Shown piece by piece: positions 17,233 to 47,894 of a DNA stretch of 47,960 bases. Positions within the stretch are counted from its first letter, which is position 1; every line of letters begins with the position of its first letter. This stretch comes from an uncultured Rhodobacter sp. (GTDB lineage Bacteria; Pseudomonadota; Alphaproteobacteria; Rhodobacterales; Rhodobacteraceae). The position numbers and the translations under genes were made by a program. The DNA is taken from contig CAYXXQ010000001.1 of NCBI GenBank assembly GCA_964469075.1, positions 1 through 47,960 on the forward strand. Direction: 5' to 3'. Under the pieces are notes generated by a model. That model was not told the origin of the DNA, ran no database searches, and saw only the letters and a list, made by a program, of their open reading frames with translations.

Positions 17233-17869
17233 CAACTTTCCGAAGCGTTACCGTCGAATACTGCGCCCTGACTTTCAGAGTCTCCGGGGTATTCACGGTA
17301 ACGCCGGAGCCGGCCGCCACAGTTACCTGCCCCACCCCTACCTGGATGACCGGGATCTCCGCGCCAACAGCAAACACCAAGCTGGAATCCGGGGGTACTG
17401 TAACCGTGATAGCGCTGGCATTCGATGCGCGCACATACGAGTACTCATCAGTCAGAGCCAGGGTGTAAGTTGTCCCTGTCTGGTCGTTGACAGTCCTGTT
17501 GTGGGGGTTGGCCCAAGTGCCATCGGCTCGCAGGAAGTGGTACGACGCGCCGGTCAGCTTGCGAAGCAGGCCATGCACGGAGGTCGACGCATCCAGATCC
17601 GTGTTGTCATCAGGTGCAGCCAGATCGTCGAGTTTTGAACTGGCAGCCACGTTTACCCAAGAAGAGCCGTTCGACACCATCAGGGCCGGGGGTGAGGACT
17701 GCACCACCACAAGGCAGTGTTCGAACGACGCGGCTGCCGGCAACGCACCTACCGTTGCTACCCGATAGATCGGAAATGCGCCGCCTACCAATAGGCCGAA
17801 GTTGGTGTTGACTTCGACTTCCCAGTTATTGAGACCTGAGAGAATTTCATCAAGTGTTGGACGTGCCAC
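17186..17869 (-). CDS. tail fibre / receptor-binding protein candidate (227 aa)
   Basis: This is the last gene of the tail operon. HGLLRKLTGASYHFLRADGTWANP resembles the common tail-fibre motif (fLrgDGtW). The N-terminus is loosely DUF2793-like. Confidence 0.5.
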   Translation of the reverse strand: MARPTLDEILSGLNNWEVEVNTNFGLLVGGAFPIYRVATVGALPAAASFEHCLVVVQSSPPALMVSNGSSWVNVAASSKLDDLAAPDDNTDLDASTSVHGLLRKLTGASYHFLRADGTWANPHNRTVNDQTGTTYTLALTDEYSYVRASNASAITVTVPPDSSLVFAVGAEIPVIQVGVGQVTVAAGSGVTVNTPETLKVRAQYSTVTLRKVATDEWDISGDLEDAP

Positions 17870-17881
17870 AGTTCGTACCCC

Positions 17882-20386
17882 TTATAGCTTCTCGAAAGAA
17901 CTCTCGTCGTATTCGCTTTCAAGCCCGTTCAAAGTGTTGACCAAGCGGATGAGGATTTCAGAAGGCTCCGACCCGAAATCAGATACCATATTGCCGTTGG
18001 AATATGTGTAGCTGTTGTCGTCCAGGGAACTCACGGTCCTCTTCAGTGTGGTGCCGGTAGAGTCATAGATTCTCAAGGTAAACGTACCTTCAGGCAGTAC
18101 AGGCTGTATCGCGGTACCGGCAGCTTGGAACCCGGCGCCGGAAGCTTTTTCAGAGGCGTTCCGAAATGACCACTTCAGATCGAGATCATTCCCTGCGTCC
18201 CAGCTGAGTAGGTTGTCAGACGAATTCAGGTTCTCGGGGGACATTGGTCGGTATCCGCTCCCCTGCATCGCTAGAGATGCTGTCGTGGCCACAGACTCAT
18301 TTATCGCATCGTTCCAGGTTTGCGGAATCGTTTTGATGGAGACCGTGTTTCCTGCTGCTAAGAAATCCCCTACGTACGGTACCAGGTACTTCTGATCGAA
18401 GATGAACACGTTTGACCCGGCCGCGTGCTCGACCTTTCTGGATCCAAACCTACCTCTGATTATCCCTTCCAATTGATAGGTAGTACTCGACAGGATAACT
18501 ATGTTTCTCAAGAACATGAATTCCCTATCGATCACACATAGCTGGTACCCGTTGCGCCATCCGGCTTCCGCTCCGGTGTAGTTGTCGACTTCATCCAGGT
18601 CGTCTCCAACCAGGGTGACCTCTGGGCCTTCCTCCTGTAGACTAAGCGCCGTGTCGCCTCCCATGGAGCTGTTCAACGTGCCTCCAAGGGAAATCATGCT
18701 GTTTGCCCCTAGATCATCATATGTCACTGAATCTAGGGAAAGGAGGATCGATGCCTCCGAGATTACTTTGGAGTCACGCACCCTGAATAGGTACGCTGCA
18801 AGGGTGTCAGGGCTTTGGTACCGGTTAGATTCAAGGAACGCGATAGCCGGATCAGGCTCAGCGACATCTAGGTCAAAACCTCCAGCGCCTATGGTATCAG
18901 GCAACCGTGAATTAAGACCATAGATATCCTGAATCGACGCAAGTTCAGCGTACCCCTCGTCAGGCTTCATGATGACACTCGTCAAGATGTACAATGGTAC
19001 AGTTCCCTCGATCCGGAACCGCTGACCGGGATACATCAACAGTGCCTCTCTGGAGGCTTTGAACTTCTGAGCAGACCCCCTACCGGAATCCTCCTGACTG
19101 CGTCTCTCAGATACGATCAGGGCAGTGTTCCAGTCACCTATGGTCGCCATCTGGACCTTTGCATCCTTTGGACTCTCCGAGTCGTCCAAAATACCTTCTG
19201 ATCCCCACACTACGGTCGTTTCTTTGAAGTTACGGTCCATGTCCGTAAACGTGTAGACAGTCCTTTCACAAGAATTTACGTAGTGGGATGTGATTGTCTC
19301 TGGTTCCCCAAACTCCAGTAGCCCGTAGGGAATGTCCGGAAAGGATTCCGACGATTCCCTGATCAAACTGAACTCAATAAGTCCAGTACTCGGGTTCCTA
19401 CCCTTCAGGATCCCAAAATCCTGCATGAGAGCGGCAACGCTAGCTTTCCAAGACTCCCCATTTTGAAGCATCAAGTGACATGGAGTACCCTCAGCATCTA
19501 CCGCTACCCCCACTGACGCCAGGCTATCGAGATCGAAGTGCCCTGTCGGTAGCTGCATCCCCCTCGGACTTGCAGAAAACAATATTTCCCGTAGGAGCGA
19601 CGCCGGATTGTAACCTTCCCCATTAGCCGTCATCCAGTCGTCGATGCCTGGTATAAGAGTCTCTGTAGGTTTGACTGTGATCTCGTAATCAATAGTAGGC
19701 CAAATAGGGGAATACCCTAGACGCCTCTTAATCCACACACCATAGCACACACCCCGCCATGCGGAGCTTATGTTGTAGTCGCTAGCTACGGTCGCTCTTT
19801 CCTGAACACTGGCTTTAGCCGATTTAAACGCCGGTATGCCTCCCCAAAACAATTCCTGAAATGATAACTGAGATGATATTAGTTGTTGATAATCGGTATT
19901 CGATATATGAGATACTCTCAACTCTGATGGTATATCTTGTGTGAGCGTTCCCCAGTATAAGTGAAAAGTCCCCCCTTTACCTAGATCTATGACGGCTTTG
20001 TCAGGATTGCTATCCCTTGTTACTTCCCCCTCCCAGATTACTTCCCCATTTGCCCATATCTTCGTTAGGGAATACGCAGGCCCGACACACAGGAAGTGGA
20101 GGGCATTCTCGTTATAGATGGTAACCTTGGAACTTTTCTTGCTACCACCTTTCTTCCCTCCACTGCCAGACTTTTCTTTCGTTATCACCCTATCCCCTAC
20201 CCACCCTATGATAGCCCCGATCCTCTTTTTTCCCTTCAAAATTGGGATCATATTCCCGCGTGTGGAAGATGTCGTTGCCTTATCGTCGTTGAGCGTTGGC
20301 TCTTTTTGGTCCTTCCTGAGAAGCATCCCAGCCATGAGAGACAAGGCTTGAATGACAATGAAAGTTATTACCTTACCGATAAACAT
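17882..20386 (-). CDS. host-specificity / central tail fibre protein, RcGTA g15-like (834 aa)
   Basis: The N-terminus has IPILKGKKRIGAIIGWVGDRV...SGGKKGGSKKSSKVTIYNENALHFLCVGP...KIWANGEVIW, the pattern I associate with GTA g15/gpJ-like proteins. The gene follows the NlpC/P60 gene with a TAATG overlap. Confidence 0.7.
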   Translation of the reverse strand: MFIGKVITFIVIQALSLMAGMLLRKDQKEPTLNDDKATTSSTRGNMIPILKGKKRIGAIIGWVGDRVITKEKSGSGGKKGGSKKSSKVTIYNENALHFLCVGPAYSLTKIWANGEVIWEGEVTRDSNPDKAVIDLGKGGTFHLYWGTLTQDIPSELRVSHISNTDYQQLISSQLSFQELFWGGIPAFKSAKASVQERATVASDYNISSAWRGVCYGVWIKRRLGYSPIWPTIDYEITVKPTETLIPGIDDWMTANGEGYNPASLLREILFSASPRGMQLPTGHFDLDSLASVGVAVDAEGTPCHLMLQNGESWKASVAALMQDFGILKGRNPSTGLIEFSLIRESSESFPDIPYGLLEFGEPETITSHYVNSCERTVYTFTDMDRNFKETTVVWGSEGILDDSESPKDAKVQMATIGDWNTALIVSERRSQEDSGRGSAQKFKASREALLMYPGQRFRIEGTVPLYILTSVIMKPDEGYAELASIQDIYGLNSRLPDTIGAGGFDLDVAEPDPAIAFLESNRYQSPDTLAAYLFRVRDSKVISEASILLSLDSVTYDDLGANSMISLGGTLNSSMGGDTALSLQEEGPEVTLVGDDLDEVDNYTGAEAGWRNGYQLCVIDREFMFLRNIVILSSTTYQLEGIIRGRFGSRKVEHAAGSNVFIFDQKYLVPYVGDFLAAGNTVSIKTIPQTWNDAINESVATTASLAMQGSGYRPMSPENLNSSDNLLSWDAGNDLDLKWSFRNASEKASGAGFQAAGTAIQPVLPEGTFTLRIYDSTGTTLKRTVSSLDDNSYTYSNGNMVSDFGSEPSEILIRLVNTLNGLESEYDESSFEKL

Positions 20387-24358: not shown

Positions 24359-27300
24359 CTACCTCTTGATTGCGCAGTACAGCTGTAGGGTCTCGGCCGG
24401 GAACACGTCGTAAACGTCGGTTCCTACCGTCACTGTGTCTTCGGCCGATACCCCAAACGGAGGAATGAAGTACATCCCCTCCAGTTGGCCGAACACCTTT
24501 CCGTCCGTGATCAATGTGGCTGCCATCAGGTCGTACACCGAGGACTCGTCCGGCTTGAGTATAGGGCCCAACTCGGTCAAATCGGAAGAGTCATACTGCA
24601 CGTTCCAAGGCCACACTGAAACCCGACCTGTATCTGGGTGATCTCCTATCGGAAGCCAAGTAGTGTATCTCAGGTAAGCGTTCGACGCAGACTCCCCAGG
24701 GTAACCGTTGTAGAAGCAGGCTCCGAGGTGTTCTGAGATAATCTGACTCAACGACGATGCTCCGACGTACATCGGATATGGGTTCCCCGTCACGGGGCTC
24801 AGGGGAGAATCGTTGCTGTAGTACAGCCCCGAGTACCCGACTTCATATCGCATATTGGGACGAGCTACAGTCACGATAGACCGACCCGATATGTACAGCC
24901 AGTACTCATAGGAGTTGTTGTTGACCAGGCGGTACAGAGGTCGGTATGTCTGGCTTACTTGGTACATCGATCCGGGTTGGAGCCAGAAGGTTTGAGCACT
25001 CTCGTATCCCGTGTAGCCCTCGGCATAAAGCCCGAACCTGCCGTTCGTGACGTCTGTGTATGTCCGGAATCCGATGTAAACATCATCCGTCCCATCGCTG
25101 CCGGGTCCTTTAAGTATCAGCTCCGATTCGGTATCCAGTACGAATTCGAAGATTTTGGAGTTTATCCCCTCTGCAATAAACAGTGTCGATCCTCCCGGAT
25201 CGAGGGCTATGCCCGATGGTGCCATGGTGTACGAGCTGAGGTCGAAATACTCAGAACCGTAACTCGCCGTAGTGATATCCCAAGCTGTCGTTAGATCGTA
25301 CTGGTAGGCGTAGTCGTTGTCCTGACCACAAATGATGAAGCGCATGCCGTCGTCGGTGAACACAAGGTTGTACATGTCTGTGTCTTCACTGGACATGTCG
25401 AACATCGACACGTAGCTGGCGGTGGACAGGTCCCAAGGTGTCGATAGTGTGTACCTTGCCAGGGTGGCTGTTGTCCCGACCCTCACCACGAACATCTCAG
25501 TGCCGTCCGGACTAAAACAGATCCCCTGAGGGACCGTGGTTAAGTAGGAAACATCCAAGGACACGACCCCGACAGCGGTGGCTGAGGTGAGATCATAGGC
25601 TGACGATAATGGGTACTGATAGACGTATTTAGTAGAGGCGCCAGCCACGTACATCTTGGTGCCGTCGTCGTTGAACGCCACGCCGTTCGGAGTGGCGTCT
25701 TGGGCAGAGACATCGAATTCAGCAATCGCGACACTAGTAGCGGTCCTTAGATCATAGGCGGAGCAAGCATACTCGACTACAGCCGTTGACGAAACGAAAA
25801 AGGTAACAGCCGTGCCGTCTGAATTATACGCGAGGTCTCGAATAGTCGCCGTAGGTAGGGATAGGTATACTGTTATTGATCCTACACTATACGCTAGCAT
25901 CCAAGCATAGTGCAAAGTGTGCGTTCGAACTCTATTGCTAGAGCCCACGATCCCAAGCTGCGTTCCTGTTGGATCGAATGCGAAGCTTTTAACACCTATA
26001 GAGGTTGCAAGGGCGTCCGTGTAAGACATCGTGCTTATATCCCAAGCCGTCGAAAGCTCCCAGTGAAAGATAGTCGACCAATTAGAAACGTAGACGTGTG
26101 TGCCGTCAGAACTAAGAGCTAATCCCCTATAACTGCTGCTTACAGTAGCTTGGGTGGTTACGAGTGTGGCCGTTCCAAGCGTCCAGGGGGATGTTAAAGA
26201 ATATTCTTCTATGTACCCTCCACTAAGGTACTTAGATACATACAGCTTCGTCCCATCTGGATTGAAGAAGCAATCGCCGATAGTCCCAGATGCCAACACC
26301 AATGAATCTCCGCCGTATGTCGCCGTTGATGCTACCCAAGGAGCCCCCAACTCATATCGGAAAATCGTGTCTGGGGTACCATCACACAAGAACATGTACT
26401 TGCCGTTCGCACTGAAGTGTATCCCTTGCGCATCAGAACACTGGGCCGTAGGGTCGTACTCTTTCGCGTCGTAATAAGCACTAGCAATGCGCCAAGGCAC
26501 TTCCATGTCCAACATGCGCACGTATCCATCGGTTACGTCGGTCAGAAACACTTCTTCCCCGTCTGGATTGAACGCCATCCCTACCAATCCCGTACCGGAG
26601 ATAGCATCCGAGGCATCGACCTCCTTCGTATCTTGCCAAAGGGTAGAAACATCCCAATCCGTAGACATGGCAAGCTGATAAATGGTATCGTCGTCCGGGT
26701 CCATCACATACCAGATATCGCCGGTAGCATTGGCTTTCATAAAGACTGGATTGCCCCATCCGAAATCGACAATCGACGATTTTTCCCCGTATGAAATTGT
26801 TGAAATATCTCCCGGAGTAGCTACAGGATACCGGTACAGGGTATCGGCAGTACTGCTGTAGAAAAAGGCATCATCCAAGTCAGAGCTCAGCACCATGGAT
26901 CGACAATACGCCACATCTGCATAGGCCCCTTGTTTCGATGTGTAACTCCCAGTAGACAGGTCGTACGGGGTAGTCATGGAGTACTGGGCAACGATGTTGT
27001 TCGTACTGGACGTCACGTACAGATTGGATCCCGTATCGTCGAAAACCAGATCCGATCCTGTAGTCGTCAGCTCTGTAGCCACACTGAGCGTCTTTGACGC
27101 ATACGTGGCCGTGCTCAGGCCCCAGGCGACGGTCATCGTGTATTGGTACACGACCCCCCCAGTACCCACCACGTACATACCCAACCCGTCCGGGCTGAAC
27201 GCCAACCCTTGAGGGCTGGTTGTTTGTCCCGAGGTATCAAAAGACGCCGTATCGTACGTAGCGGAATCTATATATCCCGCACGACTCAGCGTGTAAGAAT

Positions 27301-27823
27301 AGACAGACTTATTTGTGTCCAGTATGAAGAGTTTTGTCCCCTCTGGGTTCAAGACAAACGCCCTAGCGTTAGCCGCCCCCGCACTGTAATCAAACTCTCC
27401 TGTGTACCCTTCTGCTGTCGTAACGTCTACCAGATTCCTGTACCTCATCTCCTCCCACACATTTTCCCCGATTAGTTGGGTTACGACAAATTCGAAGACA
27501 TCTCCGACGATGAAATCGGTTGACCCGTCCGAGATCGTAAACGCCACGATATCGTTGTCGTATGCCGTCCCAACATAAGTCACTGCCTTCGCTCCGGACA
27601 CACTACCTACCACTGAGAACGTGCCTCCATCGACGGCTGTAGCCGTGCATGTAAGAGTCCAAGTTTCGGACGGGGCGTCGTTCTCTGCCACAGGATATGA
27701 GATCAAGCCGTTACCCGTACCAGTCGCGGCCGGAGTACTCACGGAATTGGCGACAGTGGCGTGGTCTCTGATCTTTTCCAGCAACCCCAAATGGCTATCT
27801 GTAGTGCCTGTGAATCTCATCAA
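24359..27823 (-). CDS. large tail protein carrying about 15 YVTN/NHL-like beta-propeller repeats (1154 aa)
   Basis: ATGA-coupled to the tape measure stop. Residues 150-897 consist of units of about 50 aa of the type FD.S.....P.G.AF..DGTK.YV.......YQY.L...WD.STA.Y. Confidence 0.6.
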   Translation of the reverse strand: MMRFTGTTDSHLGLLEKIRDHATVANSVSTPAATGTGNGLISYPVAENDAPSETWTLTCTATAVDGGTFSVVGSVSGAKAVTYVGTAYDNDIVAFTISDGSTDFIVGDVFEFVVTQLIGENVWEEMRYRNLVDVTTAEGYTGEFDYSAGAANARAFVLNPEGTKLFILDTNKSVYSYTLSRAGYIDSATYDTASFDTSGQTTSPQGLAFSPDGLGMYVVGTGGVVYQYTMTVAWGLSTATYASKTLSVATELTTTGSDLVFDDTGSNLYVTSSTNNIVAQYSMTTPYDLSTGSYTSKQGAYADVAYCRSMVLSSDLDDAFFYSSTADTLYRYPVATPGDISTISYGEKSSIVDFGWGNPVFMKANATGDIWYVMDPDDDTIYQLAMSTDWDVSTLWQDTKEVDASDAISGTGLVGMAFNPDGEEVFLTDVTDGYVRMLDMEVPWRIASAYYDAKEYDPTAQCSDAQGIHFSANGKYMFLCDGTPDTIFRYELGAPWVASTATYGGDSLVLASGTIGDCFFNPDGTKLYVSKYLSGGYIEEYSLTSPWTLGTATLVTTQATVSSSYRGLALSSDGTHVYVSNWSTIFHWELSTAWDISTMSYTDALATSIGVKSFAFDPTGTQLGIVGSSNRVRTHTLHYAWMLAYSVGSITVYLSLPTATIRDLAYNSDGTAVTFFVSSTAVVEYACSAYDLRTATSVAIAEFDVSAQDATPNGVAFNDDGTKMYVAGASTKYVYQYPLSSAYDLTSATAVGVVSLDVSYLTTVPQGICFSPDGTEMFVVRVGTTATLARYTLSTPWDLSTASYVSMFDMSSEDTDMYNLVFTDDGMRFIICGQDNDYAYQYDLTTAWDITTASYGSEYFDLSSYTMAPSGIALDPGGSTLFIAEGINSKIFEFVLDTESELILKGPGSDGTDDVYIGFRTYTDVTNGRFGLYAEGYTGYESAQTFWLQPGSMYQVSQTYRPLYRLVNNNSYEYWLYISGRSIVTVARPNMRYEVGYSGLYYSNDSPLSPVTGNPYPMYVGASSLSQIISEHLGACFYNGYPGESASNAYLRYTTWLPIGDHPDTGRVSVWPWNVQYDSSDLTELGPILKPDESSVYDLMAATLITDGKVFGQLEGMYFIPPFGVSAEDTVTVGTDVYDVFPAETLQLYCAIKR

Positions 27824-39118: not shown

Positions 39119-39193
39119 GCTTGCTCCCTGAAATTGCGTCTTATCTATTATCGCAATATATTGCACCCATACTTTACGTCAACTCAATCTAAT
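39119..39193. promoter_or_regulatory. AT-rich divergent intergenic region with the 12-bp perfect palindrome GCAATATATTGC
   Basis: The palindrome is at 39153-39164. A flanking inverted repeat pairs ATTGCG (39133-39138) with CGCAAT (39152-39157). The region separates the divergent protease/scaffold (-) and portal (+) genes. Confidence 0.5.
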
Positions 39194-40588
39194 ATGGGGA
39201 CAGCTAAAATGCCAGCAGAAACCTTGAATTGTACGTCTATCGACACACGTATCGAACTTTTTGGGTCAGAAGGTAGGATCCAAAAAGAATTGCTCACGGA
39301 CGCATCTGGATCCCTCCAGCCTGGGGAATCGTATGGCAGCAGCCTCACAGCTGAAGGTGTCATGGTTCACACCTTCAACAAACCCGGTGCCCGTGCCTGG
39401 CTCAAAAAGAATGCTACACACGGAGCGTGCATCAGATCAAAAGTTGCTTGCTCGGTAGGTCTCGGTATGATAAGTGATCAAGAGAAGGAAGCGGCAGGCG
39501 CTGAGGCCGGCCAAGCTGGCATCGACCCAAAAGACATCATCCAGTTTATAATGGATCCGGATATCCACAGATCTGAAGCAGAAAAACAGCTCGATGCCCT
39601 TTGCCTCATCGACTTTCAAGATCTACTCTCACGGGGTGGGTCCGATTTCTTCGAATTGGGGGACATGGCCATAGAAGTGCGTCGAGATTCAAATGATCCG
39701 ATCAACGGAGAGGTCAAGGCCCTGTATTACCTGCCGACTGATGAACTATATGCGTTCAGTGAAGGCAATGGCAAAGATTTCTATTTTAATATCGGGTACG
39801 GATCTGATATCGATACTGCTTTCTGCCGCTTCGGGGACAAAGCCAGATTCCTGGCAACAGAGGCTGCCAACAATCTACAACCTGAAAACGTGTCTGAAGT
39901 CATCTATATCCCAGATCCTCTCGGGGGGCATCCTCTCTATGGGGAGCCCGGCTGGCTATCTTCAGCCCCTGCCATGGAAACAGCCAATGCTGCCTGGGAA
40001 GAAAAACTCTCTGACTACGTCAATCGGTGTATTGTGGACTTCCTACTGTTCATTCACGGTCCTGGAACGCCCATCGGTAAAACAGACTGGAACAAAATCA
40101 GAACCGCGATTTCCCAGACATCCGAGACCGGCAAGAAGCACCAATCCGTGGCCCACGCTTTCTCAAGCACTGCCGACACAAAAATCTTCTTCCAACAGAT
40201 CACCAAAGACAGCAAGACCGATGAGGCGTTCCAGAAGAACTACGAAGTAACCAAGATGGACATCGTTACCAGTCACCAGGTTCCCCCACTGCTCGCCGGC
40301 ATTCAGATTCCGGGCAAGCTCGGAGCGAATAACGAATTCGTCAACGCCTTAATGTCTTTCCAAGCCCTGGTCATCGGGAGATCTCAGCGAACCATCTCCC
40401 GGGCACTGTCTCGTACCCTCGGAGATACGAAAAAGTCAGGCCTCGGTATCGACCCAGATTCATTCAATTTCCGCAAAGTCACTGACTACATCGACATCAA
40501 GACTGCAGACACTGTTGGGCGCATGCGTGAAAGTGCCCCAGAAGCCGCAGCAAACGGTCGAGACCTCTCAGATGGTGTGAAGGAGTGA
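39194..40588 (+). CDS. portal protein, PBSX/Phage_portal family type (464 aa from ATG 39194; tracked TTG start at 39134)
   Basis: GDMAIEVRRDSNDPINGEVKALYYLP, GEPGWLSSAPAMETANAAWEEKLSDYVNRCIVDFLLFIHG and IVTSHQVPPLLAGIQIPGKLG follow the conserved portal blocks as I remember them. Confidence 0.8.
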   Translation: MGTAKMPAETLNCTSIDTRIELFGSEGRIQKELLTDASGSLQPGESYGSSLTAEGVMVHTFNKPGARAWLKKNATHGACIRSKVACSVGLGMISDQEKEAAGAEAGQAGIDPKDIIQFIMDPDIHRSEAEKQLDALCLIDFQDLLSRGGSDFFELGDMAIEVRRDSNDPINGEVKALYYLPTDELYAFSEGNGKDFYFNIGYGSDIDTAFCRFGDKARFLATEAANNLQPENVSEVIYIPDPLGGHPLYGEPGWLSSAPAMETANAAWEEKLSDYVNRCIVDFLLFIHGPGTPIGKTDWNKIRTAISQTSETGKKHQSVAHAFSSTADTKIFFQQITKDSKTDEAFQKNYEVTKMDIVTSHQVPPLLAGIQIPGKLGANNEFVNALMSFQALVIGRSQRTISRALSRTLGDTKKSGLGIDPDSFNFRKVTDYIDIKTADTVGRMRESAPEAAANGRDLSDGVKE

Positions 40589-40592
40589 CCCG

Positions 40593-41150
40593 ATGGCTAC
40601 CGGCTCGGCAGGGCAGATTACAGTCCCGGATTACTTCATCCAGTTCCTCGACCCAACCATCAAGGATCTGAGGGATCTGCTACACAGACAATCTATGTCC
40701 TCGATACCTTCTACAGCACTAAAGGGCGGCTTGGAAATCGCACAAGATGGCAGAACCAGCCTAAAGGCACAGGTACCCCACTTCTGGGCTGTCATCCTGC
40801 ACGACGGTCGGGAAGCGGTAAAGAGAAAAGAAGGCGGCCCCATGCTGGCGTACTATCGTGACGTCGCAAACGATCCACGTATCGCCAATGGGTACCCAGA
40901 GCGGTTGTCTGAGGTACAAAAGCTGTCCCTGACCTCAGTGCAATTCAGTGAAGCGGTAAAGTCCGGCGAGTTGATTCTACGGGAATCAGTAGGCCCGACT
41001 GTAGGAAAGAAGTTCTTTGACAACGACGTTGGCTTTGCAGGATTCAAGCAGAAGGTAGCGGATACGGTCTTGGCTCGGTTCCAGAAATTCTCAAGAGCTT
41101 ACGCCAAAGGTGTGTCCTTCGAGATGCGTACCAGGGTCACCTTCAAGTAG
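40593..41150 (+). CDS. virion-associated hypothetical protein (185 aa), possibly HK97 gp10-like
   Basis: The gene follows the portal by 4 nt on the same strand. The resemblance of AQVPHFWAVILHDGREAV to gp10-type neck proteins is weak. Confidence 0.4.
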   Translation: MATGSAGQITVPDYFIQFLDPTIKDLRDLLHRQSMSSIPSTALKGGLEIAQDGRTSLKAQVPHFWAVILHDGREAVKRKEGGPMLAYYRDVANDPRIANGYPERLSEVQKLSLTSVQFSEAVKSGELILRESVGPTVGKKFFDNDVGFAGFKQKVADTVLARFQKFSRAYAKGVSFEMRTRVTFK

Positions 41151-41212: not shown

Positions 41213-41650
41213 TCAGGCGCTGGCATCTTGTGTCCCTCGTCGTGATCGGTTCCACGGCGCCCAGCCTCCGGCGCGTACTGCTCTGTGCATAGCCCATGCA
41301 CGGCGCTTCCCGACGCCGCGTGCGAGCATTAGACGGTAGAATAGCTCGTCGATCTCTTTCCGTGTCATCTCGCATGATTCCAAGATACCATCTACAGGTC
41401 CAGACAGCAACTTGCCGCTGTATCCCGCATCGTGGATGATGGCGGCTCTGAGATAGCGCCCAGTCCAGGGAGAGCCCACGATGCGCCATGCAAATCGCGG
41501 TATGCTCGCTCCGTCGGTCAGCATCCCAGCCGGAGCGCGGTACAGAACTCCGTCCTCGATGGCGTCGAAGGGCTTCGTCAGCATGAACCAGCCCGGCATG
41601 CTCAGATCTTCGAGGTCAGAGAGCTGGACGCAATGCGGGAACGTAATCAT
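41213..41650 (-). CDS. DUF1353-like protein (145 aa)
   Basis: YRAPAGMLTDGASIPRFAWRIVGSPWTGRYLRAAIIHDAGY matches the DUF1353 core (TDGaSiP...HD..Y) from memory. Its start overlaps the upstream stop. Confidence 0.6.
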   Translation of the reverse strand: MITFPHCVQLSDLEDLSMPGWFMLTKPFDAIEDGVLYRAPAGMLTDGASIPRFAWRIVGSPWTGRYLRAAIIHDAGYSGKLLSGPVDGILESCEMTRKEIDELFYRLMLARGVGKRRAWAMHRAVRAGGWAPWNRSRRGTQDASA

Positions 41651-42042
41651 GGGCTCCCTCGCTGGTCCGCGTCCACGTCGCCGTTCTGGCTTGCTGCCGC
41701 TCTCGCGTTCGCCGTGGTGTCCGGCGAGATGATACCACCGAAATCGACAGGCTTCGCGGCGACCTGCGCGCCGATGACGATGATCGTTGGCGCCGAGCCC
41801 TCGGAAAGCGACTCAGCCGGTAGAGTGATTACGGGGTCATGAATGTGCTGGACGTTGCTGACGCATCCAGAGCATATGAACACGCACGCCATCACGAGTA
41901 CCAATGCTACAATGTCGTTGTCTTTCATCTTGCTCGTACCCCCGGTTTTTCGTGTCGTGGCGCAACCGCCGCGTCCCCTATTGCTACGGTTACCACGTCC
42001 TGATCCGTCCCGTTTCGGGGTGCCTTTTGCCGTTGTTTTCAT
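41647..42042 (-). CDS. membrane-anchored or lipoprotein-like small protein (131 aa)
   Basis: An Arg/Gly-rich N-terminus is followed by IVALVLVMACVFICSGC, a hydrophobic helix ending in a lipobox-like SGC. ATGA-coupled to the upstream gene. An alternative start, MKDNDIV, would give about 93 aa. Confidence 0.5.
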   Translation of the reverse strand: MKTTAKGTPKRDGSGRGNRSNRGRGGCATTRKTGGTSKMKDNDIVALVLVMACVFICSGCVSNVQHIHDPVITLPAESLSEGSAPTIIVIGAQVAAKPVDFGGIISPDTTANARAAASQNGDVDADQRGSP

Positions 42043-42386
42043 TCTGCGTTCTCCAAAGTTGCCCCGGTGAGTTCCTGCATCTGGATTGCACGGCCCAAGA
42101 GGTCGTCGGCAGCATCATCAAACCACTTCTTGCCCGATACGCCAGCTACCCGCATCTGCTGGTGCGCAACGGCGACTTTGCCTGCCAGCATCGCTTCCTT
42201 GCTCAAGTACGCAGCGAGATGGATGTCGGCGGAGTCGTTGGCAATGGACACGGTGAACTCCTCAAGAGCCCAATACGTGGCTGCGATGCCTGAACTCATT
42301 ACCTTGTCCAGCTTCACCCTCTTCGGTTTTGCCATGACTGCGATTGACAGGCCCAGGATCAGTGCGATTGCGATAGTGTTTCTCAT
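42039..42386 (-). CDS. signal-peptide or N-terminally anchored envelope protein (115 aa)
   Basis: The N-terminus is MRNTIAIALILGLSIAVMAKPK. AAGGAG SD lies before the ATG. The remainder is predicted helical. Confidence 0.5.
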   Translation of the reverse strand: MRNTIAIALILGLSIAVMAKPKRVKLDKVMSSGIAATYWALEEFTVSIANDSADIHLAAYLSKEAMLAGKVAVAHQQMRVAGVSGKKWFDDAADDLLGRAIQMQELTGATLENAE

Positions 42387-42398
42387 TCTTCGGTCTCC

Positions 42399-45300
42399 TT
42401 ACTCGATGACTTCAACCAGGGTTGCGTAAATCACGATCTCTGTACCGTTATCTGCGTCGGGGGTAAACTGCATTCTCAAGTAGTCAGTAGTGCTGTCCAC
42501 TGCGTCAATAGCAAAGACCCACGTCGCATCATCTTCATCAATAGTAGTGATGGTCGCTGCCGACTTCATGGCAGTGGTCCCCGCATCGTTCTGGATCGTG
42601 CAGGAAAACTCCCATGAATTGGACTCGTTTGCCGTAGGGTCTCGGGCAACCGCCAGTCCCTTGACGACGACTGTGGACGACGACGTGATAACCGCGTACT
42701 GCGACCCTACGCCTCGCAGAAAGATCTCAGTTGCCCCACTGGCCGCAGTCACGTTCCCGTACCACGATACCTCAGACTTACGAAACGTCATAGTCTTGGT
42801 CTGAGGGGTTCCGAGACTGGCTACGTCTCCATAGCGTGCGCCCTGTGAGTAGGGGCCTAGTGCCGTGCTGTATGGGTGTGTATTTGTGTCAGAACAGTCC
42901 CCTAGTGCCACTCCAACGGGGCAAGCGTCCGCATTGTCCCCAACCGCCACGCCGAAGTTAGACCCGTTCGCGCCGTTACCAACCCCCACGCCGAATACAG
43001 ACCCGTTTGCTGCGTACCCAACCGCCGCGCCATGGTTCCTAGCGTTAGCCGAACCACCAACCGCCGCGCCATGGTCGTTAGCGTTAGCCGCACCACCAAA
43101 CGCTGACCCAAAATTAGAAGCATTTGCCCCCTGCCCGATACTGGTGTTGATAAATTCCTGGTCGTAGGTGTCAGCCCCGGTTCTGGTATTTATGAATCCT
43201 GGGCCTACACAGCGCCACAGGCTGTCGGTGCTGTCATAAACAAAATGTGCTCCCCCTCCTACGTTTACCCGAGTAAAATACTCGGTAGCATCACCCGACA
43301 ACGAGACCTCAAGGTAAAAAGCGCCAGTTCTAGAACCAGAGTTCACAACCCAGAACTCGCTGTCTGCCGCTGGAGCAGCAGGAAGGTACACATCTCTGTT
43401 CTCGCCGTCGGGGTCAAGCAGTTGTGTCTGCGGGTCGCCGTCCGCTATTGTCTTTGCGTCTGCAAGTGTCTCGACGTTTACGGCGAAGGTAGTGCCGCCG
43501 CCTCCAGCCCCGAGCTGCACTTCAGCCGCCGTATCGTCTGCGAACCAGAGCGTATTCGGTGTCCCGGTCTTAACGTATATCTGCCCGTACCCGGCAACAG
43601 AGGTCGCCGCCGCCGCCTGCTCCAGCAGACGCATAGCCGCATCCGCGCTGAACACGGTATCCGAAAAGTAAGCCCTCCGTACCCCGTTGGTTGCAATGTC
43701 TACGTACCCATCTGCTGAGCTGTAGATGCCGTCGCCGTCGTCCCCGAAGTTGATCGTCGGGGTAACAGCGTCGTTGGTGAGAGGGAGGTACGCATGTCCT
43801 GTGAGGTCGATGTTGACCGCAGCCGTCAGACTGCCCGAACTAAGGGTTGCGGTACCGTCCGTGATCGACACCCCTGTAATACTGCCCGCCGCGTAGATGT
43901 TCTTCGGCCGATTCGCCCCCGAGGTGCCGATATCCGTTGTATTGTCCGTGCCGAACACTATGGCCTGGTCATGGATGTCGAGCACAACCGCCGTGCCGGT
44001 ACCCGAGCCGTCCTGGTCGACGCTGATACGCAAGTACGGATCTGCCCCATAAATCAGTTGCAGCACGCCGCTAACGGCGTTTCCTGCGTTATCTCCAGAC
44101 AGTGTGAGTGTGGGGGAATTGACCCCGGTGCCGCTCTGGTCTACGACCACCCCGCTGTCCACCACGTCCACCGTGCCTGTACCATTGGGCGTTAGATTGA
44201 TGCCGCCATTCGCAACGCCCACGGTGATATCAAAATCGATACCGGTCTGGCCGAGCGTGGTTTTGTTTGCTGTGCCTTCGTGAATCTGGATATCGGTGTC
44301 GCCCCCCGTGCCAGAGCCCACGATGATATCGGCGTCCTTCTCGTAGTTCATCCAAATGTTCTTGTCAGATGCGTTCCCCAACCAAAAGTTCGTCTCATCG
44401 TTCGAAAACGCAAAGTACGTGGGGTACGTCTTATCGATACCTATGTACGTGTTCTCAACATCGTCGAACTCGATGTACGCCGCATGCATGTCGGTCGTGA
44501 CGTAGAGGTCGCCGTTAAGCACCAAAGCATTGCGGGTAAATATCCCGGCCCCTGTCGAGCCCTGAGCGGCTATTAGATTGCTTGACCCGGTTACCGCAGT
44601 ATCCCCGGCTGCGATATCTCCGGCGTAGTTAGTAGTGAACCCTGTCAAAGAGGCATTTACTCCAAATATCTGAACCTCTGCCCCTCCAGCGGGCGAGTCC
44701 AAGTACAGCAGTGTTCCGGTTCCGTTACCAGCAGACGACACCTCAATATCCAGACTCCGTACACACGCTTTAGTGGGGAGTCCCAATACCCTAACGAAAT
44801 TCACGGCACCAACGTACGCTGCATCCAAAGCGTCGATTCTCTGTTCCCCACCCTCGATGCAGAATTCCCCCGTATAGGACGAATCGAAGTTGTACGTGTA
44901 CATGTTGTCATCGTAATCTTCGGTATCACAGTCTGAATGTACGTCCTGGAACGTACAATTCGAAGACCCAGTAACGGCTACTGGAATGTGGGTCACGACA
45001 CCTACCGAATCACCCCCACCATTGTATCTCAACTTACCTCCATAGAGGCTGAACACGCCACCGTCTATGTCGAGCAGCGTACCGCTGGCCCCGTTGTCGC
45101 TATTGACCCACGAAAACCAAACATTGTGGTGGATACAGAATCCTGTAGTCTGCTTAAATACTGTCCCACCATCGCCGGTGCTCTCTATCGAGATATTGGC
45201 GATATTCCCAGCCGTTGCGGCCGCCGGTGCGGTGACCGTGATTCCTGAACTTGACGTAATCGTAGTTGCGACATGATCCCCTGCCCCAATCAAGGATGTG

Positions 45301-45686
45301 TACCCAGGCAAGACAACATTCTCACTGGAGTACTCTCCCGGGTAAACGACGATAACGTATCGTTTACTGGTTGAACTATCCGTGATGCTTGCTGCGGCTG
45401 CCGTTACTGTTGTGTGCTGCCCCCCGCTCTTGGCCACGGTGACGACCTGTGCTGGGCTCAGCCCTAAGAGTGCCCCAGCAGCTCCAGCGTCAGCTGCCCC
45501 TACCAGAGACCTCCCGAAAGTGGAGAAATCCGTTGACGTCACATCTGCAGACCCTGTACCGTCGAGGTACGGCAGCTTGTCCGCTGCCCAGTCCGATCGG
45601 TTCACGTACACCGGTACTCTCTGGGCATAGGCCGCCCCCGAGATGAACAGAAGTAGTGCCCAGAAACTCATAACCCGGGATCTCAT
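42399..45686 (-). CDS. 1095-aa protein with a Sec-type signal peptide, a pectin-lyase-like beta-helix region and YadA-head-like 13-aa repeats (tailspike-like or exported adhesin/depolymerase)
   Basis: The N-terminus is MRSRVMSFWALLLFISGAAYA|Q. VAKSGGQHTTVTAAAASITDSSTSKRYVIVVYPGEYSSENVVLPGYTSLIGAG is pectinesterase/beta-helix-like. There are six repeats of 13 aa (GANASNFGSAFGG AANANDHGAAVGG ...). Confidence 0.65.
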   Translation of the reverse strand: MRSRVMSFWALLLFISGAAYAQRVPVYVNRSDWAADKLPYLDGTGSADVTSTDFSTFGRSLVGAADAGAAGALLGLSPAQVVTVAKSGGQHTTVTAAAASITDSSTSKRYVIVVYPGEYSSENVVLPGYTSLIGAGDHVATTITSSSGITVTAPAAATAGNIANISIESTGDGGTVFKQTTGFCIHHNVWFSWVNSDNGASGTLLDIDGGVFSLYGGKLRYNGGGDSVGVVTHIPVAVTGSSNCTFQDVHSDCDTEDYDDNMYTYNFDSSYTGEFCIEGGEQRIDALDAAYVGAVNFVRVLGLPTKACVRSLDIEVSSAGNGTGTLLYLDSPAGGAEVQIFGVNASLTGFTTNYAGDIAAGDTAVTGSSNLIAAQGSTGAGIFTRNALVLNGDLYVTTDMHAAYIEFDDVENTYIGIDKTYPTYFAFSNDETNFWLGNASDKNIWMNYEKDADIIVGSGTGGDTDIQIHEGTANKTTLGQTGIDFDITVGVANGGINLTPNGTGTVDVVDSGVVVDQSGTGVNSPTLTLSGDNAGNAVSGVLQLIYGADPYLRISVDQDGSGTGTAVVLDIHDQAIVFGTDNTTDIGTSGANRPKNIYAAGSITGVSITDGTATLSSGSLTAAVNIDLTGHAYLPLTNDAVTPTINFGDDGDGIYSSADGYVDIATNGVRRAYFSDTVFSADAAMRLLEQAAAATSVAGYGQIYVKTGTPNTLWFADDTAAEVQLGAGGGGTTFAVNVETLADAKTIADGDPQTQLLDPDGENRDVYLPAAPAADSEFWVVNSGSRTGAFYLEVSLSGDATEYFTRVNVGGGAHFVYDSTDSLWRCVGPGFINTRTGADTYDQEFINTSIGQGANASNFGSAFGGAANANDHGAAVGGSANARNHGAAVGYAANGSVFGVGVGNGANGSNFGVAVGDNADACPVGVALGDCSDTNTHPYSTALGPYSQGARYGDVASLGTPQTKTMTFRKSEVSWYGNVTAASGATEIFLRGVGSQYAVITSSSTVVVKGLAVARDPTANESNSWEFSCTIQNDAGTTAMKSAATITTIDEDDATWVFAIDAVDSTTDYLRMQFTPDADNGTEIVIYATLVEVIE
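42940..43135. repeat. tandem 39-bp coding repeats, about 5-6 units; the two central copies are near identical
   Basis: Copies at 43018-43056 and 43057-43095 differ at only a few positions. Flanking units are more diverged. Confidence 0.8.
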
Positions 45687-45700
45687 AGTCTTGTCCTCGT

Positions 45701-46039
45701 TTATGCCCCGAGAGGCATCGTTACGTTCCAGTTTCCTGCTTCACCCTTGAAGATCATCGATTCTGGGTAAGCATACAGCACTTTGTTCTCTGCCACATCG
45801 TTCACCGTGTCCGCGCCATCCAGAACACACGTTACTTGGTTGGTGCCGGAATCGACGATCTCCAAATCCAACTCGTCTACGGCAGACGGCAGGTTGACTG
45901 TAATTGCCCCGGTGGATGAGTCCACCAGGATCCGGTAATTTCCGGACGTGTACCCCGTCAAGTCGTGTGGGCCAGCCCCGGTAAGGGGTACTTGTGTGGG
46001 TGCTAAAGAGCAGTCAGGTGCGGGGTATATCTTCGGCAT
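45701..46039 (-). CDS. hypothetical small beta-rich protein (112 aa)
   Basis: GGAG lies before the ATG and the gene is tightly packed in the TerL operon. No motif recognised. Confidence 0.5.
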   Translation of the reverse strand: MPKIYPAPDCSLAPTQVPLTGAGPHDLTGYTSGNYRILVDSSTGAITVNLPSAVDELDLEIVDSGTNQVTCVLDGADTVNDVAENKVLYAYPESMIFKGEAGNWNVTMPLGA

Positions 46040-46042
46040 TTG

Positions 46043-46363
46043 TCAACTCCTCAAAACTGAGGTCGTAGAAGTCAACCCCGTACCACAGATCCCCTTCAAC
46101 CCGGCATTCGGCAGATCTTTGTCGACCTTGGAGAATGTCAAGTATCCCCCAACCGCCATAGGCCACCCCTTGCCAAACACACAACTCGCATCATCCAGGT
46201 CACCAGGGAAGGCGTCTACCGGATTCGATCCGGTGTTCCGGACCAGTACCGATGTGACTTCCATCCCGTCAGCACTGGACACCGGTGCGAGCGAAGCAGC
46301 GAGGATCAACCCAACTGTTGCCGTTACAGATGCGTCGATTGGGGCGTAACCTTTGAAAGACAT
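46043..46363 (-). CDS. hypothetical small protein (106 aa) with one hydrophobic stretch (ATVGLILAASLAPV)
   Basis: AGGAGG lies before the ATG and the gene directly follows TerL. No motif recognised. Confidence 0.5.
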   Translation of the reverse strand: MSFKGYAPIDASVTATVGLILAASLAPVSSADGMEVTSVLVRNTGSNPVDAFPGDLDDASCVFGKGWPMAVGGYLTFSKVDKDLPNAGLKGICGTGLTSTTSVLRS

Positions 46364-46412: not shown

Positions 46413-47894
46413 TTACCGAGTTGCAATATCAAAACCAGAAGAGATCGCACATGGGTAGTGCGCCATCACAAAAGCATCCGCCCTATCTGGGGACTCTCCA
46501 TTTTCCGATCTGTGCTGATCCTTTGGCACCATAATCGGCCTGCCTTTCGGGTCTATCATGTACTTCCTCGTAGTCAACTGCCGAATCAGAATCGGGTCAT
46601 CCGGCACGTTGATACACTCGGCCAGCACCTTTTTCCTGATCCAAAAGTAAGCCTCTGTTATCCGATTGGCATATTCCCGTGATAGTGGCTTCCCATGGTT
46701 GTGGAATTCGAATGCTTGCCACTCCTCTTCGTAAAACGTCCCGATACACCCCTGGCCCATGCCACTGGAATCTGGCACAAAGGTACACTTGTCCTTTTTC
46801 CAATGGAAGTCCTCTGCGTACTTGATCGCCCTGCGCGTGGTCTCGGCTGGCTCTATCATCGACTTCGTCCACCATGACAACGTTGCGTTCCCTTGGATGG
46901 CGTAGATGGCGTTCTCGTCACCGCCCTTACGAGCGTAGTCCAACGAAATCTGTCTCCGGATTGCCCGGTCCCCGAACTGGGGATCGAGACACAGCTCCTT
47001 GTATCCTCGCTGATCTGGTATGAGAGTCCCCGGCTCCATCATGTACCGTAAATGCTGATCCGGTGTGTCGGTAACGAGGGGGTCAATCAGTTCCGTGGAC
47101 AACACAGCGTCTGCATCCTGCTTCGGAAACTCCCCCAACACATTCACCCGGTAGACATCCGATTCCTTACCATACTCCCTCGCCAATTGCTTGGCCTGGT
47201 CCGAGTTGTAGTAGGGACTGACGGTCTCTTCAGCGTTCCAGTGCAATTGCACCCAGGTATGCTTGTCTGGTCCGTAGAAGCAGTCAAAGAACGCACTGGA
47301 GCGAATTGACGGGTTCCCGATCGCCAGCATCCAGTTATCCGGACCTGTCAGCGTGCTCTTGTACACATGCCACATCTGCCGATCGATAGCACTCGCCTCT
47401 TCGAAGATCACCCCCATGTGGTTCTCATGCTGCCCCCTGGCGCGGTCGGAGTCCCGAGCAGCCTTCAGCATGCACCCCCAAACGTTCTGTTTCCGATTCA
47501 AGATCCCGAACCCGGTCTCAGTGAAGTCGAAGATATTCTGCAGGACAGCGTTGGCTTCAGGGTTCTCGACGATCAGTTTCTTGGCCTGGGCCAGCCAAGC
47601 ATCCTTACACTGAGACATGGTAGGCGCCGTCACGATCAGCTTATGGCTGCGGTGCCGAATAGACGCAAACATCCCCACGATACCGGCAGTAAACGTCTTC
47701 CCTGGCCCCATTCCCGACCGCACAGCAATGCGCCTCGAACCCTTCTGTACTTGGTCAAGCAACTCTTCTTGCTGGGATGTTGGGGTTACCCCGATCTCAC
47801 GACAAAAATTGTAAATGTCTGCTGTGAGGTATTGTAGGTAATCCTCAAACGGGTTGTGAGTGTTTTTTGATGTTAGGAACATCGCCCACCCCAC
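46413..47894 (-). CDS. terL: terminase large subunit (493 aa from GTG 47894; ATG at 47882 is an alternative start)
   Basis: Walker A is RSGMGPGKTF and Walker B is MGVIFEEAS. Nuclease motifs are FVPDSSGMGQG and SPDRADAF. Confidence 0.9.
   Translation of the reverse strand: MGWAMFLTSKNTHNPFEDYLQYLTADIYNFCREIGVTPTSQQEELLDQVQKGSRRIAVRSGMGPGKTFTAGIVGMFASIRHRSHKLIVTAPTMSQCKDAWLAQAKKLIVENPEANAVLQNIFDFTETGFGILNRKQNVWGCMLKAARDSDRARGQHENHMGVIFEEASAIDRQMWHVYKSTLTGPDNWMLAIGNPSIRSSAFFDCFYGPDKHTWVQLHWNAEETVSPYYNSDQAKQLAREYGKESDVYRVNVLGEFPKQDADAVLSTELIDPLVTDTPDQHLRYMMEPGTLIPDQRGYKELCLDPQFGDRAIRRQISLDYARKGGDENAIYAIQGNATLSWWTKSMIEPAETTRRAIKYAEDFHWKKDKCTFVPDSSGMGQGCIGTFYEEEWQAFEFHNHGKPLSREYANRITEAYFWIRKKVLAECINVPDDPILIRQLTTRKYMIDPKGRPIMVPKDQHRSENGESPDRADAFVMAHYPCAISSGFDIATR
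47835..47889. repeat. copy 1 of a 55-bp perfect direct repeat (period 71 bp) spanning the TerL start
   Basis: TAGGTAATCCTCAAACGGGTTGTGAGTGTTTTTTGATGTTAGGAACATCGCCCAC was read at 47835-47889 and again at 47906-47960. Confidence 0.9.

Follow-up and report, generated by a model that had tools for sequence, protein, structure and literature searches.

Background

Phage lysis of diderm hosts is modelled as the successive action of holin, endolysin and spanin; a peptide 'disruptin' is a rarely used alternative. Mycobacteriophage LysB, a cutinase-like esterase acting on mycolyl-arabinogalactan, and the disruptin gp28 of phage phiKT, a cationic peptide, represent a last lysis step without spanins, in which the outer lipid layer is breached enzymatically or by membrane attack. 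Here we report on a gene block (positions 41213-45686) in a 47,960-nucleotide stretch of DNA from an uncultured Rhodobacter sp. (GenBank assembly GCA_964469075.1, contig CAYXXQ010000001.1, positions 1 to 47,960; this whole stretch is referred to as the window). The block encodes a 1095-amino-acid (aa) spike-like protein with a predicted Sec-type signal, a small predicted secreted protein (115 aa), a predicted lipoprotein (131 aa) and a DUF1353 protein, a putative phospholipase A2 (PLA2) that, unlike LysB and the disruptin, is both a PLA2 homologue and paired with a lipoprotein. With confidence that is about evenly balanced, we consider the block best read as two envelope-directed gene pairs in the 3' half of the terminase late operon of a phage, and not as a single spanin-type cassette. 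The arrangement suggests an attack on the host envelope from inside that lies outside the standard lysis models.

The described counterpart of the DUF1353 protein is TtaP (STY1887) of the Salmonella typhoid-toxin islet, which is reported to be a PLA2 with the active site H70/D71/D85, similar to group XIV PLA2s within a three-helix core only, and for which its authors propose outer-membrane perturbation (PMC11525133). The two proteins share PF07087, a similar size, the lack of a secretion signal, a conserved His-Asp...Asp and a gene context that comes from, or looks like, a phage lysis cassette, the TtaP islet carrying the muramidase TtsA. They differ in that the protein studied here is phage-borne, encoded in a late operon, coupled to a lipoprotein and without an adjacent muramidase; it is known from sequence alone, and TtaP alone is not lytic. 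In the passages of the DUF1353 literature consulted, no placement of the family in phage lysis was found, and among the papers searched, judged by titles and abstracts, a phospholipase as lysis effector is proposed only in work on phage WO (PMC9203015). There, a patatin PLA2 is proposed to act without a canonical endolysin and lies beside a small protein with a single transmembrane (TM) segment. The differences are that the patatin fold is unrelated to the group-XIV-like one, that the WO host lacks detectable peptidoglycan (PG), and that the WO cassette is a hypothesis as well.

For the 1095-aa protein the comparison is with Pantoea stewartii WceF and Erwinia AmsF, which are exported, phage-tailspike-like right-handed beta-helix proteins acting on the producer's own exopolysaccharide (EPS) (PMC7949094). 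WceF is chromosomal, has a Tat (twin-arginine translocation) signal and comprises 736 aa, whereas the 1095-aa protein is phage-encoded and has a Sec-type signal, an extra fibre-type C-terminal module and a dedicated secreted partner; the likeness is one of fold class and not of shown sequence homology. Virion tailspike depolymerases (P22 gp9 type and Klebsiella K-type) share with it the beta-helix class, modular C-terminal domains and a gene position just upstream of lysis-type genes. They have an N-terminal particle-binding domain and no signal, whereas in the 1095-aa protein a particle-binding or fibre-shaft N-terminal domain is absent and ~60 residues separate the signal from the helix.

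Gene organization of the block

The block is part of an array of seven closely spaced minus-strand genes, in the order TerL, 106 aa, 112 aa, 1095 aa, 115 aa, 131 aa and DUF1353, the end of which faces the plus-strand portal operon (39134-41150). The gene for the terminase large subunit, TerL (46413..47894; phrog_5902, E=8e-36), is the first co-directional gene inside the window. From TerL on, the intergenic spacing is 49, 3, 14 and 12 nucleotides, followed by two 4-nucleotide ATGA overlaps (115/131 aa and 131 aa/DUF1353), and a GGAG/GAGG-type Shine-Dalgarno (SD) sequence precedes each start in the array. The initial annotation, which was made from the sequence of the window, had described SD-preceded and partly ATGA-coupled minus-strand genes after TerL and two small open reading frames (ORFs), and all of them were found where it had placed them.

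No promoter-like or terminator-like sites above shuffle expectation were found within the block. The G+C content at third codon positions (GC3) of the block is 0.60-0.68, compared to 0.54-0.72 in the other phage genes checked. Since this is within the phage range the block is unlike a recent insert, and the possibility that it is a recently acquired foreign 'moron' is disfavoured.

The spike-like protein and its presumed secreted partner

We read the 1095-aa protein (42399..45686, minus strand) as being built like a receptor-binding protein in which a Sec signal replaces the virion anchor of related fibres. The predicted signal peptide (aa 1-21, MRSRVMSFWALLLFISGAAYA|Q; 45624..45686) consists of an n-region with a charge of +2 (MRSR), a 17-residue uncharged h-region (VMSFWALLLFISGAAYA) and the c-region AYA|Q. 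By sequence rules this is the layout of a Sec type I signal, i.e. a basic n-region, an h-region of 10-20 residues and small residues at -3/-1.

Homologues are rare (7 among 5.8 billion clusters); in the following, P-numbers denote homologous proteins and L-numbers the contigs or loci compared. P0002-P0005 show 33-52% identity to the beta-helix core, and all four are encoded on phage contigs, which range in GC content from 36% to 62% and carry further signal-peptide or lipoprotein genes alongside the homologue. They start with MRKRILFTLLLFATSIFAQ, MRKLILFVLISIFLMAGISFAG, MRKLILIIALLLISTLYPQ and MRTRNIVSLLAPALLAGALCIAG, so that MR(K/T)(R/L) followed by a hydrophobic stretch is present in 4/4 of these phage-contig homologues. 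The predicted signal property is thus kept in the family though the sequence itself has diverged, which agrees with the AxA-type signal peptide assigned to the large protein in the initial annotation.

The AlphaFold2 (AF2) model, for which the alignment comprised 7 sequences, has a right-handed beta-helix that is confident only at residues ~80-390 (predicted local distance difference test, pLDDT, 70-87; feature boundaries aa ~81-390, 44517..45446); residues 390-1095 are unmodelled and the C-terminal domains are described by sequence homology only. When the beta-helix part was compared with the PDB using Foldseek, the top matches were the pectin methylesterases 1gq8 and 1xg2 (E~4e-4 to 7e-4), and phage tail fibres and tailspikes, including Klebsiella phage Kp7 gp52 and Agrobacterium phage 7-7-1 fibres, were matched as well. 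A profile search against the PDB matched 3grh and pectinesterases over the N-terminal cap only. Likewise, Pfam Pectinesterase (PF01095, CE8) reached 12.6 bits against a cut-off of 27, at profile positions 2-69 only, which again is the N-terminal cap, and on reading the 1095-aa sequence no QDT or DFIFG catalytic motif was seen. The pectinesterase-like beta-helix proposed earlier consequently stands as a fold, while the protein appears to lie outside the CE8 pectin methylesterases.

The C-terminal module (aa ~687-1095; 42402..43628) is homologous to signal-less proteins of tail-fibre type. Its residues 687-1077 are 28% identical to P0006, and both P0006 and P0007 share the helix and the entire module and have ~230 fibre-type N-terminal residues and no signal; a gene directly upstream of P0026 in L016 is also homologous. 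The module contains six 13-aa Gly/Ala/Asn repeats (aa 853-930; 42897-43130), which are real as first described, although their 'YadA-like' adhesin-head character lacks Pfam support: no Hep_Hag or YadA match to the 1095-aa protein was obtained at E<=0.1, and the units resemble such repeats in composition only. A role of the module as a type IX secretion system (T9SS) sorting domain is unlikely, since the signal-less P0006 and P0007 share it.

The region and the 1095-aa protein had no blastn or tblastn match among 50,697 phage records, IMG/VR pattern scans with the 1095-aa protein and with TerL returned nothing, and PHROGs and NCBIfam contained nothing for the 1095-aa protein. A possible tail-fibre N-terminal motif in aa 22-84 was dropped, as tblastn of these residues against phages gave nothing significant.

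The 115-aa protein (42039..42386, minus strand) has a predicted signal at aa 1-19 (AVMA|KPK) with the organization MR / NTIAIALILGLSIAVMA / VMA|K, which conforms to the same Sec type I rules. Its family is tiny, with 6 matches among 1.84 billion representatives in an exhaustive HMMER scan, and in PHROGs it matches phrog_5084 of unknown function (E=1.5e-5). The three full-length relatives P0026, P0028 and P0031 have cleavable-looking signals (TAALA|KPK, AQGIA|KE and SIMA|AT, respectively); neither the 115-aa protein nor these relatives match a spanin family, and they have AxA cleavage sites instead of an uncleaved TM domain. On L016, P0026 is encoded directly downstream of the gene whose last 313 residues match the C-terminal module of the 1095-aa protein. 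The family follows the same module once more, which argues that the 115-aa protein travels with the module and is not an i-spanin. We presume that it is exported together with the 1095-aa protein and serves it as a partner, much as a tail-fibre assembly protein would.

Two further loci are related to these observations. On L001 (9511-14302), one of the contigs with a signal-bearing homologue, five consecutive phage genes (162, 888, 186, 213 and 133 aa) have predicted signal peptides that all end A/S|Q, a pattern typical of Bacteroidota. Behind these genes come those for two small TM proteins and a DUF5675 protein, such that the exported block precedes putative lysis genes. L027 (7857-9419), a 224-kb chromosome-like contig of an archaeal (Woesearchaeota) metagenome-assembled genome, encodes a 520-aa protein that has a hydrophobic N-terminus and is homologous to the beta-helix core, and its neighbours (ZIP-like permease, CorA-like, Kae1-like and Lon-like genes) look cellular by eye.

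The predicted lipoprotein and the putative phospholipase A2

The DUF1353 protein (145 aa; 41213..41650, minus strand) scored 72 bits against PF07087 (gathering cut-off 22.5; E=3e-20), so its original family assignment holds. In an alignment of 18 DUF1353 sequences DGASIP, P61, H73, D74, D101 and G129 are invariant, and the candidate catalytic residues are H73-D74 (41429-41434) and D101 (41348-41350). When the profile of these 18 sequences was compared with the PDB only PLA2 chains matched (8k1w, E=5e-5; 1faz/1lwb, 1.5e-3; 7ygk, 3e-3; 4aup, 1e-2), and in the three printed alignments (8k1w, 1faz/1lwb and 7ygk) both the HD pair and the Asp further along line up with those of the PLA2. This result independently reproduces the published PLA2 assignment of TtaP. 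The DUF1353 protein, which has no signal peptide, is on these grounds a group-XIV-like PLA2 homologue with conserved catalytic residues and a putative enzyme, in keeping with its suggested role as the enzymatic partner in the block.

The start of the DUF1353 gene overlaps the 131-aa ORF (41647..42042, minus strand), which consists of a basic, RG-rich part (aa 1-38), a hydrophobic segment, the sequence CSGC (Cys60) and a conserved domain of ~71 aa. Family alignment predicts it to be a lipoprotein. It shares with P0033, P0034 and a gene on L007 the invariant xGC|(V/M)(S/T)NVQ (xGC|VSNVQ in the window copy), followed by (I/V)(I/V)GAQ(V/L)(A/S)AKPVD(F/L)G and AAS(Q/K)(N/E)G, and the lipobox Cys is invariant across the alignment. 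P0034, which starts with MKLAIILIIVLLCAGC, has the form of a short lipoprotein precursor. P0033 and the L007 protein pass the strict PROSITE lipobox pattern (PS51257), which P0034 fails with a Cys at -3.

Compared to its relatives the window ORF has 38 extra Arg/Gly-rich N-terminal residues (41929-42042, minus strand), and an alternative start, M39, is present at 41928. The RG segment had been annotated as a tail; it is located N-terminal to the hydrophobic segment. The motif in this segment, PKRDGSGRGNRxNRGRGGCATT, also forms the C-terminal end of the unrelated small proteins P0035 and P0036 and is shortened in P0033; to judge from these occurrences it is an independent conserved module, here fused in frame to a predicted lipoprotein signal.

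The same overlap of a lipoprotein homologue with the start of DUF1353 is seen on L007, which is otherwise a different phage, and the DUF1353 product there is 61% identical to that of the window. On L018 a lipoprotein homologue comes after a 759-aa protein that bears a signal and has a weak beta-helix match, and on L002 unrelated lipoproteins follow a signal-bearing beta-helix protein. Lipoproteins of the 131-aa type thus appear to travel with DUF1353 or other downstream genes. For L018 and L002, the genes that follow the lipoprotein were tentatively taken for NlpC/YiiX-type amidases, an assignment that was dropped since it had no Pfam support. L007 (10449-10673) and L002 (11652-11930) also have in common a small protein (M-x-[DE]-IDY-x-x-LG...; mutual E=1e-8) whose TM segment is C-terminal and which in these two unrelated phages adjoins lipoprotein/DUF1353 or lipoprotein/211-aa genes. 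It is a holin candidate and has no relative in the window.

DUF1353 gene neighbourhoods

Among 12 annotated small phage genomes, DUF1353 is located at most five genes from an annotated PG hydrolase or holin in 10 (AH02, Bjorn, Carin1, NrS-3, phiRTG5, DMCA, FNU_1P, Funu2, JCSV and ctjLE16), and the same applies to the metagenomic contig L011, which itself is unannotated. Vibrio phage 1.049.O and a Helicobacter prophage have no annotated lysis gene near DUF1353.

For a broader survey 80 IMG/VR DUF1353 loci were clustered at 70% identity, resulting in 49 groups. A search seeded with ten known lysins detected PG hydrolases in only 5/49 loci and was replaced by a Pfam scan of all DUF1353 neighbours. 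The 122 neighbours within two genes had as their commonest Pfam families Peptidase_M15_3 (five times), CHAP (four), M15_2 (three), Amidase_2 (two) and M15_4 (two), all of which are PG hydrolases; GH108 and a LydA-type holin were found once each. A lipoprotein-like gene is directly adjacent to DUF1353 in 9/49 loci and at most two genes away in 11/49, compared to a background of 1/284 distant same-strand ORFs, these counts resting on crude gene calling. Moreover, unrelated lipoproteins flank DUF1353 in Carin1, DMCA and NrS-3 and lie two genes off in L011, and in JCSV DUF1353 is followed by a TM and coiled-coil protein and a lipoprotein (a spanin-like pair), a holin and a transglycosylase. DUF1353 is thus genuinely associated with lysis cassettes, most notably with lipoproteins, though not universally. 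The initial view of the cluster as envelope-directed is supported, as are the signal conserved in the family of the large protein, the PLA2 homology and the ties of DUF1353 to lysis cassettes in many phages.

In L011 (14856-15353) the DUF1353 protein comprises 165 aa with a C-terminal TM segment, and its gene is followed by those for a signal-peptide protein, a lipoprotein and a GH108 endolysin.

Search for lysis genes in the phage genome

The window represents a siphovirus-type genome: its major capsid protein is of the lambda gpE type, it encodes an XkdF-type protease and a portal with a weak match, a 1645-aa ORF lies where a tape-measure gene would be expected, and the replication genes are on the plus strand. 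Its tail tip resembles that of gene transfer agents (GTAs; BR0599, phiJL001 gp84 and Rcc01698_C domains) and a separate tail fibre is encoded at 17186-17869, which means that a complete adsorption apparatus is already present 20 kb from the spike/DUF1353 block. An identical TerL was found on 55,889-bp contigs; the 48-kb window therefore covers part of a 55.9-kb genome, and the extra ~8 kb contain 14 small genes. The TerL operon extends upstream past the window end, with same-strand genes for 360-aa and 137-aa proteins preceding TerL.

No Pfam family of holins or PG hydrolases was found in the 39 window ORFs scanned, nor in 10/14 of the extra ORFs, and a PHROGs scan of 10/14 genes in the extra 8 kb gave no lysin or holin. 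Holin-like ORFs were sought in the gaps and none was seen; relatives of lysis-region genes from related loci are also absent from the window. The tail NlpC/P60 protein, which had been taken as the only PG enzyme, is a weak match (TIGR02219, E=0.015). The observation that holin and endolysin are missing hence stands for the window ORFs scanned; the window is, however, an incomplete genome, to which the extra 8 kb add a weak i-spanin-like candidate only.

This candidate is the 137-aa protein encoded directly upstream of TerL on the same strand, just past the right end of the window (L028 7319-7732, plus strand), which combines a single TM segment (aa ~40-57) with a long coiled coil and weakly matches three Rz-like i-spanin PHROGs (E=0.0015-0.035). 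If it were an i-spanin, the spanin genes would be split ~6 kb apart across the terminase operon. As in lambda Rz/Rz1-type spanins, a small lipoprotein at the end of the late region and a type-II coiled-coil membrane protein would occur in the same operon. The differences are that the candidates here are ~6 kb apart and neither adjacent nor embedded, that the mature part of the 131-aa lipoprotein (~71 aa with a conserved hydrophobic core motif) has only ~6 prolines, and that the adjacent 115-aa gene is not an i-spanin. The 131-aa protein gives weak Rz-like PHROGs matches (E=0.004 and 0.027), mainly over the signal region.

Proposed mechanism and alternatives

The evidence covers the layout, the conservation of signal and lipobox, the fold class, the PLA2 homology and the neighbourhood statistics, and from these we infer export, substrates, timing and lytic effect. 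The first pair, i.e. the 1095-aa and 115-aa proteins, would be exported late in infection to the periplasm and possibly to the cell surface, with the 115-aa protein acting as folding or assembly partner. The 1095-aa protein would then bind or cut a host surface glycan that is recognised by the phage family, which would loosen capsule/EPS and destroy receptors such that progeny could leave without being trapped. The most economical purpose of this pair would be to destroy receptors or to loosen the capsule. In the second pair the 131-aa lipoprotein would be translationally coupled to a cytoplasmic DUF1353 PLA2 that stays latent until the inner membrane is permeabilised; the enzyme would subsequently hydrolyse envelope phospholipids, and the lysophospholipids would break the outer membrane. 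The lipoprotein may serve as the o-spanin-type partner of the 137-aa protein or as an outer-membrane tether for the enzyme. Group XIV PLA2s require Ca2+, and this need, together with TtaP alone not damaging the envelope, fits a latent enzyme. A lysis module and an exported depolymerase system were originally presented as alternatives; probably both apply, each to a different gene pair.

Several points weigh against this two-pair reading. Export of the 1095-aa protein is deduced from sequence rules and conservation, and catalytic residues cannot be assigned in its beta-helix. The window copy of the lipobox, CSGC (ICSGC), fails the core of the strict PS51257 pattern because -3 is Cys, so the lipobox-like character first noted rests on the family alignment; in addition, the SD favours a start of the 131-aa ORF 38 codons upstream of the usual lipoprotein start, which puts the Cys at residue 60. 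The combination of AF2 and Foldseek, suggested at the outset, supported the beta-helix but not the phospholipase, since Foldseek of the DUF1353 model (pLDDT 86) against the PDB found no PLA2 (best E=1.2). TtaP is reported to cause no overt envelope damage in S. Typhi. DUF1353 is not near lysis genes in the large/jumbo phages examined and is structural according to one record (phage Arash), and a recognisable PG hydrolase occurs within two genes in only ~1/4 of the metagenomic loci. Finally, holin and endolysin were not identified in this phage, and a full lysis pathway cannot be drawn.

Some of these points would suit an ordinary virion module, an explanation that survives best among the alternatives and that we nevertheless regard as unlikely. 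The 1095-aa protein would in that case be a tail fibre or tailspike with a structural or membrane-tethering hydrophobic N-terminus, the 115-aa protein an assembly chaperone, and the DUF1353 protein a tail-assembly chaperone or a virion-borne entry phospholipase. The domain make-up is indeed that of receptor-binding proteins, Foldseek matches phage fibres and P0006 and P0007 are fibre-type relatives, but the full n/h/c and AxA layout recurs in the homologues and their neighbours without conservation of the sequence, and the putative chaperone (115 aa) itself bears a signal peptide. A hydrophobic N-terminus is also found in a second tail protein, the 834-aa Rcc01698_C-like protein; on the other side, the phage already has a complete GTA-like tail-tip module 20 kb away. 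As to DUF1353, PHROGs labels it 'tail assembly chaperone' (phrog 1158), it is encoded near tail fibres in NrS-3 and SURPRISE13 and it is called 'structural' in Arash, whereas the protein retains the catalytic residues of an enzyme and its commonest recognisable neighbours are lysins and not tail genes.

Rather improbable is superinfection exclusion or receptor masking with no role in lysis, in which the spike-like protein, the 115-aa protein and the lipoprotein would modify or block the receptor and DUF1353 would remodel lipids for the same end. A model for this is T5 Llp, a lipoprotein encoded beside the T5 receptor-binding gene, and lambda lom and bor are exported accessory genes in late regions. 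Three consecutive products that are predicted to be exported or lipid-anchored would agree with such a function, as would the lipoprotein homologue following a signal-bearing beta-helix protein in L018 and the unrelated lipoproteins doing so in L002; the lipoprotein gene, however, overlaps DUF1353 in this block and also in L007, in which it has no spike-like gene ahead of it. Lysis genes dominate the DUF1353 neighbourhood, no integrase or repressor was seen among the ORFs scanned, and the composition shows no foreign insert. Very unlikely, lastly, is the spanin-pair cassette of the initial annotation, self-contained at 41213-42386 with the 115-aa protein as i-spanin, the 131-aa protein as o-spanin and DUF1353 replacing the endolysin: a membrane-signal protein is followed with an ATGA overlap by a lipobox-like protein that has weak Rz-like matches, and Pfam found no endolysin in the ORFs scanned, but members of the 115-aa family bear AxA-type cleavable signals and are found with the spike C-terminal module rather than with the lipoprotein, the lipoprotein homologues in L007 and L018 lack such an upstream partner, the 137-aa protein with its TM segment and coiled coil is the better i-spanin candidate, and DUF1353 is a lipase homologue and not a PG hydrolase.

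Going beyond this locus, the reading as two envelope-directed pairs can be extended into a single, wider proposition that we put forward tentatively and consider doubtful as a whole. It holds that DUF1353 PLA2s, often together with a small lipoprotein, may be widespread and unrecognised phage lysis effectors that breach the outer membrane by lipid hydrolysis and not by spanin fusion, mis-annotated as 'tail assembly chaperones', and that some phages may Sec-export derivatives of receptor-binding proteins with a dedicated secreted partner, which act on surface glycans from inside prior to lysis. If true, a lipid-hydrolysing enzyme that recurs in lysis cassettes would constitute a third, enzymatic way of crossing the outer membrane. 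It would account for where the ttsA-ttaP pair of the typhoid-toxin islet came from, would correct a propagated annotation and would provide a small outer-membrane-permeabilising enzyme that could be combined with endolysins to target Gram-negative bacteria. The spike-like protein, for its part, addresses how progeny escape from capsule/EPS and from trapping on debris; an enzyme that is exported via Sec and destroys receptors would be to phages what neuraminidase is to other viruses.

Other features of the phage genome

The two small genes between TerL and the spike-like gene are both on the minus strand. The 106-aa protein (46043..46363) has a strong SD and a hydrophobic N-proximal segment (aa 11-31, ...APVSSA|DG), and may be exported; in a database of 26 proteins it is weakly similar to a 93-aa gene from the tail-fibre region of L007 (E=2e-4). 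The 112-aa protein (45701..46039) has no signal and is weakly similar, in the same 26-protein database, to the product of a gene (142 aa; E=0.007) that in L011 lies two genes upstream of the signal-bearing homologue.

Elsewhere in the window, an 88-aa ORF in the early/middle region (4481-4747, plus strand) opens with a twin-arginine-type signal, SMNRRGFLGSAIGIVGTLAAA, and is possibly Tat-exported; it has no Pfam or NCBIfam match. The 834-aa Rcc01698_C-like tail-tip protein mentioned above (17882-20386, minus strand) starts with the hydrophobic helix MFIGKVITFIVIQALSLMAGMLL and is clearly a structural tail protein. A 1154-aa protein of the tail region (24359-27823, minus strand) matches SMP-30/gluconolactonase and arylesterase beta-propellers (E=1e-12 and 1e-8, respectively), and at its C-terminus it is similar to the product of the next gene (phrog_687); a lactonase or esterase carried by the tail is a possible role. 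Beyond the window, a divergent intergenic region of the 55.9-kb genome (L028 5661-6189) contains dense tandem repeats, with a 21-bp unit repeated 7.4 times (CAGGTGTCGGATTTCGCGACA), a 52-bp unit repeated 3.3 times and an 8-bp unit repeated 13 times, which are iteron-like and may mark an origin or a regulatory region.

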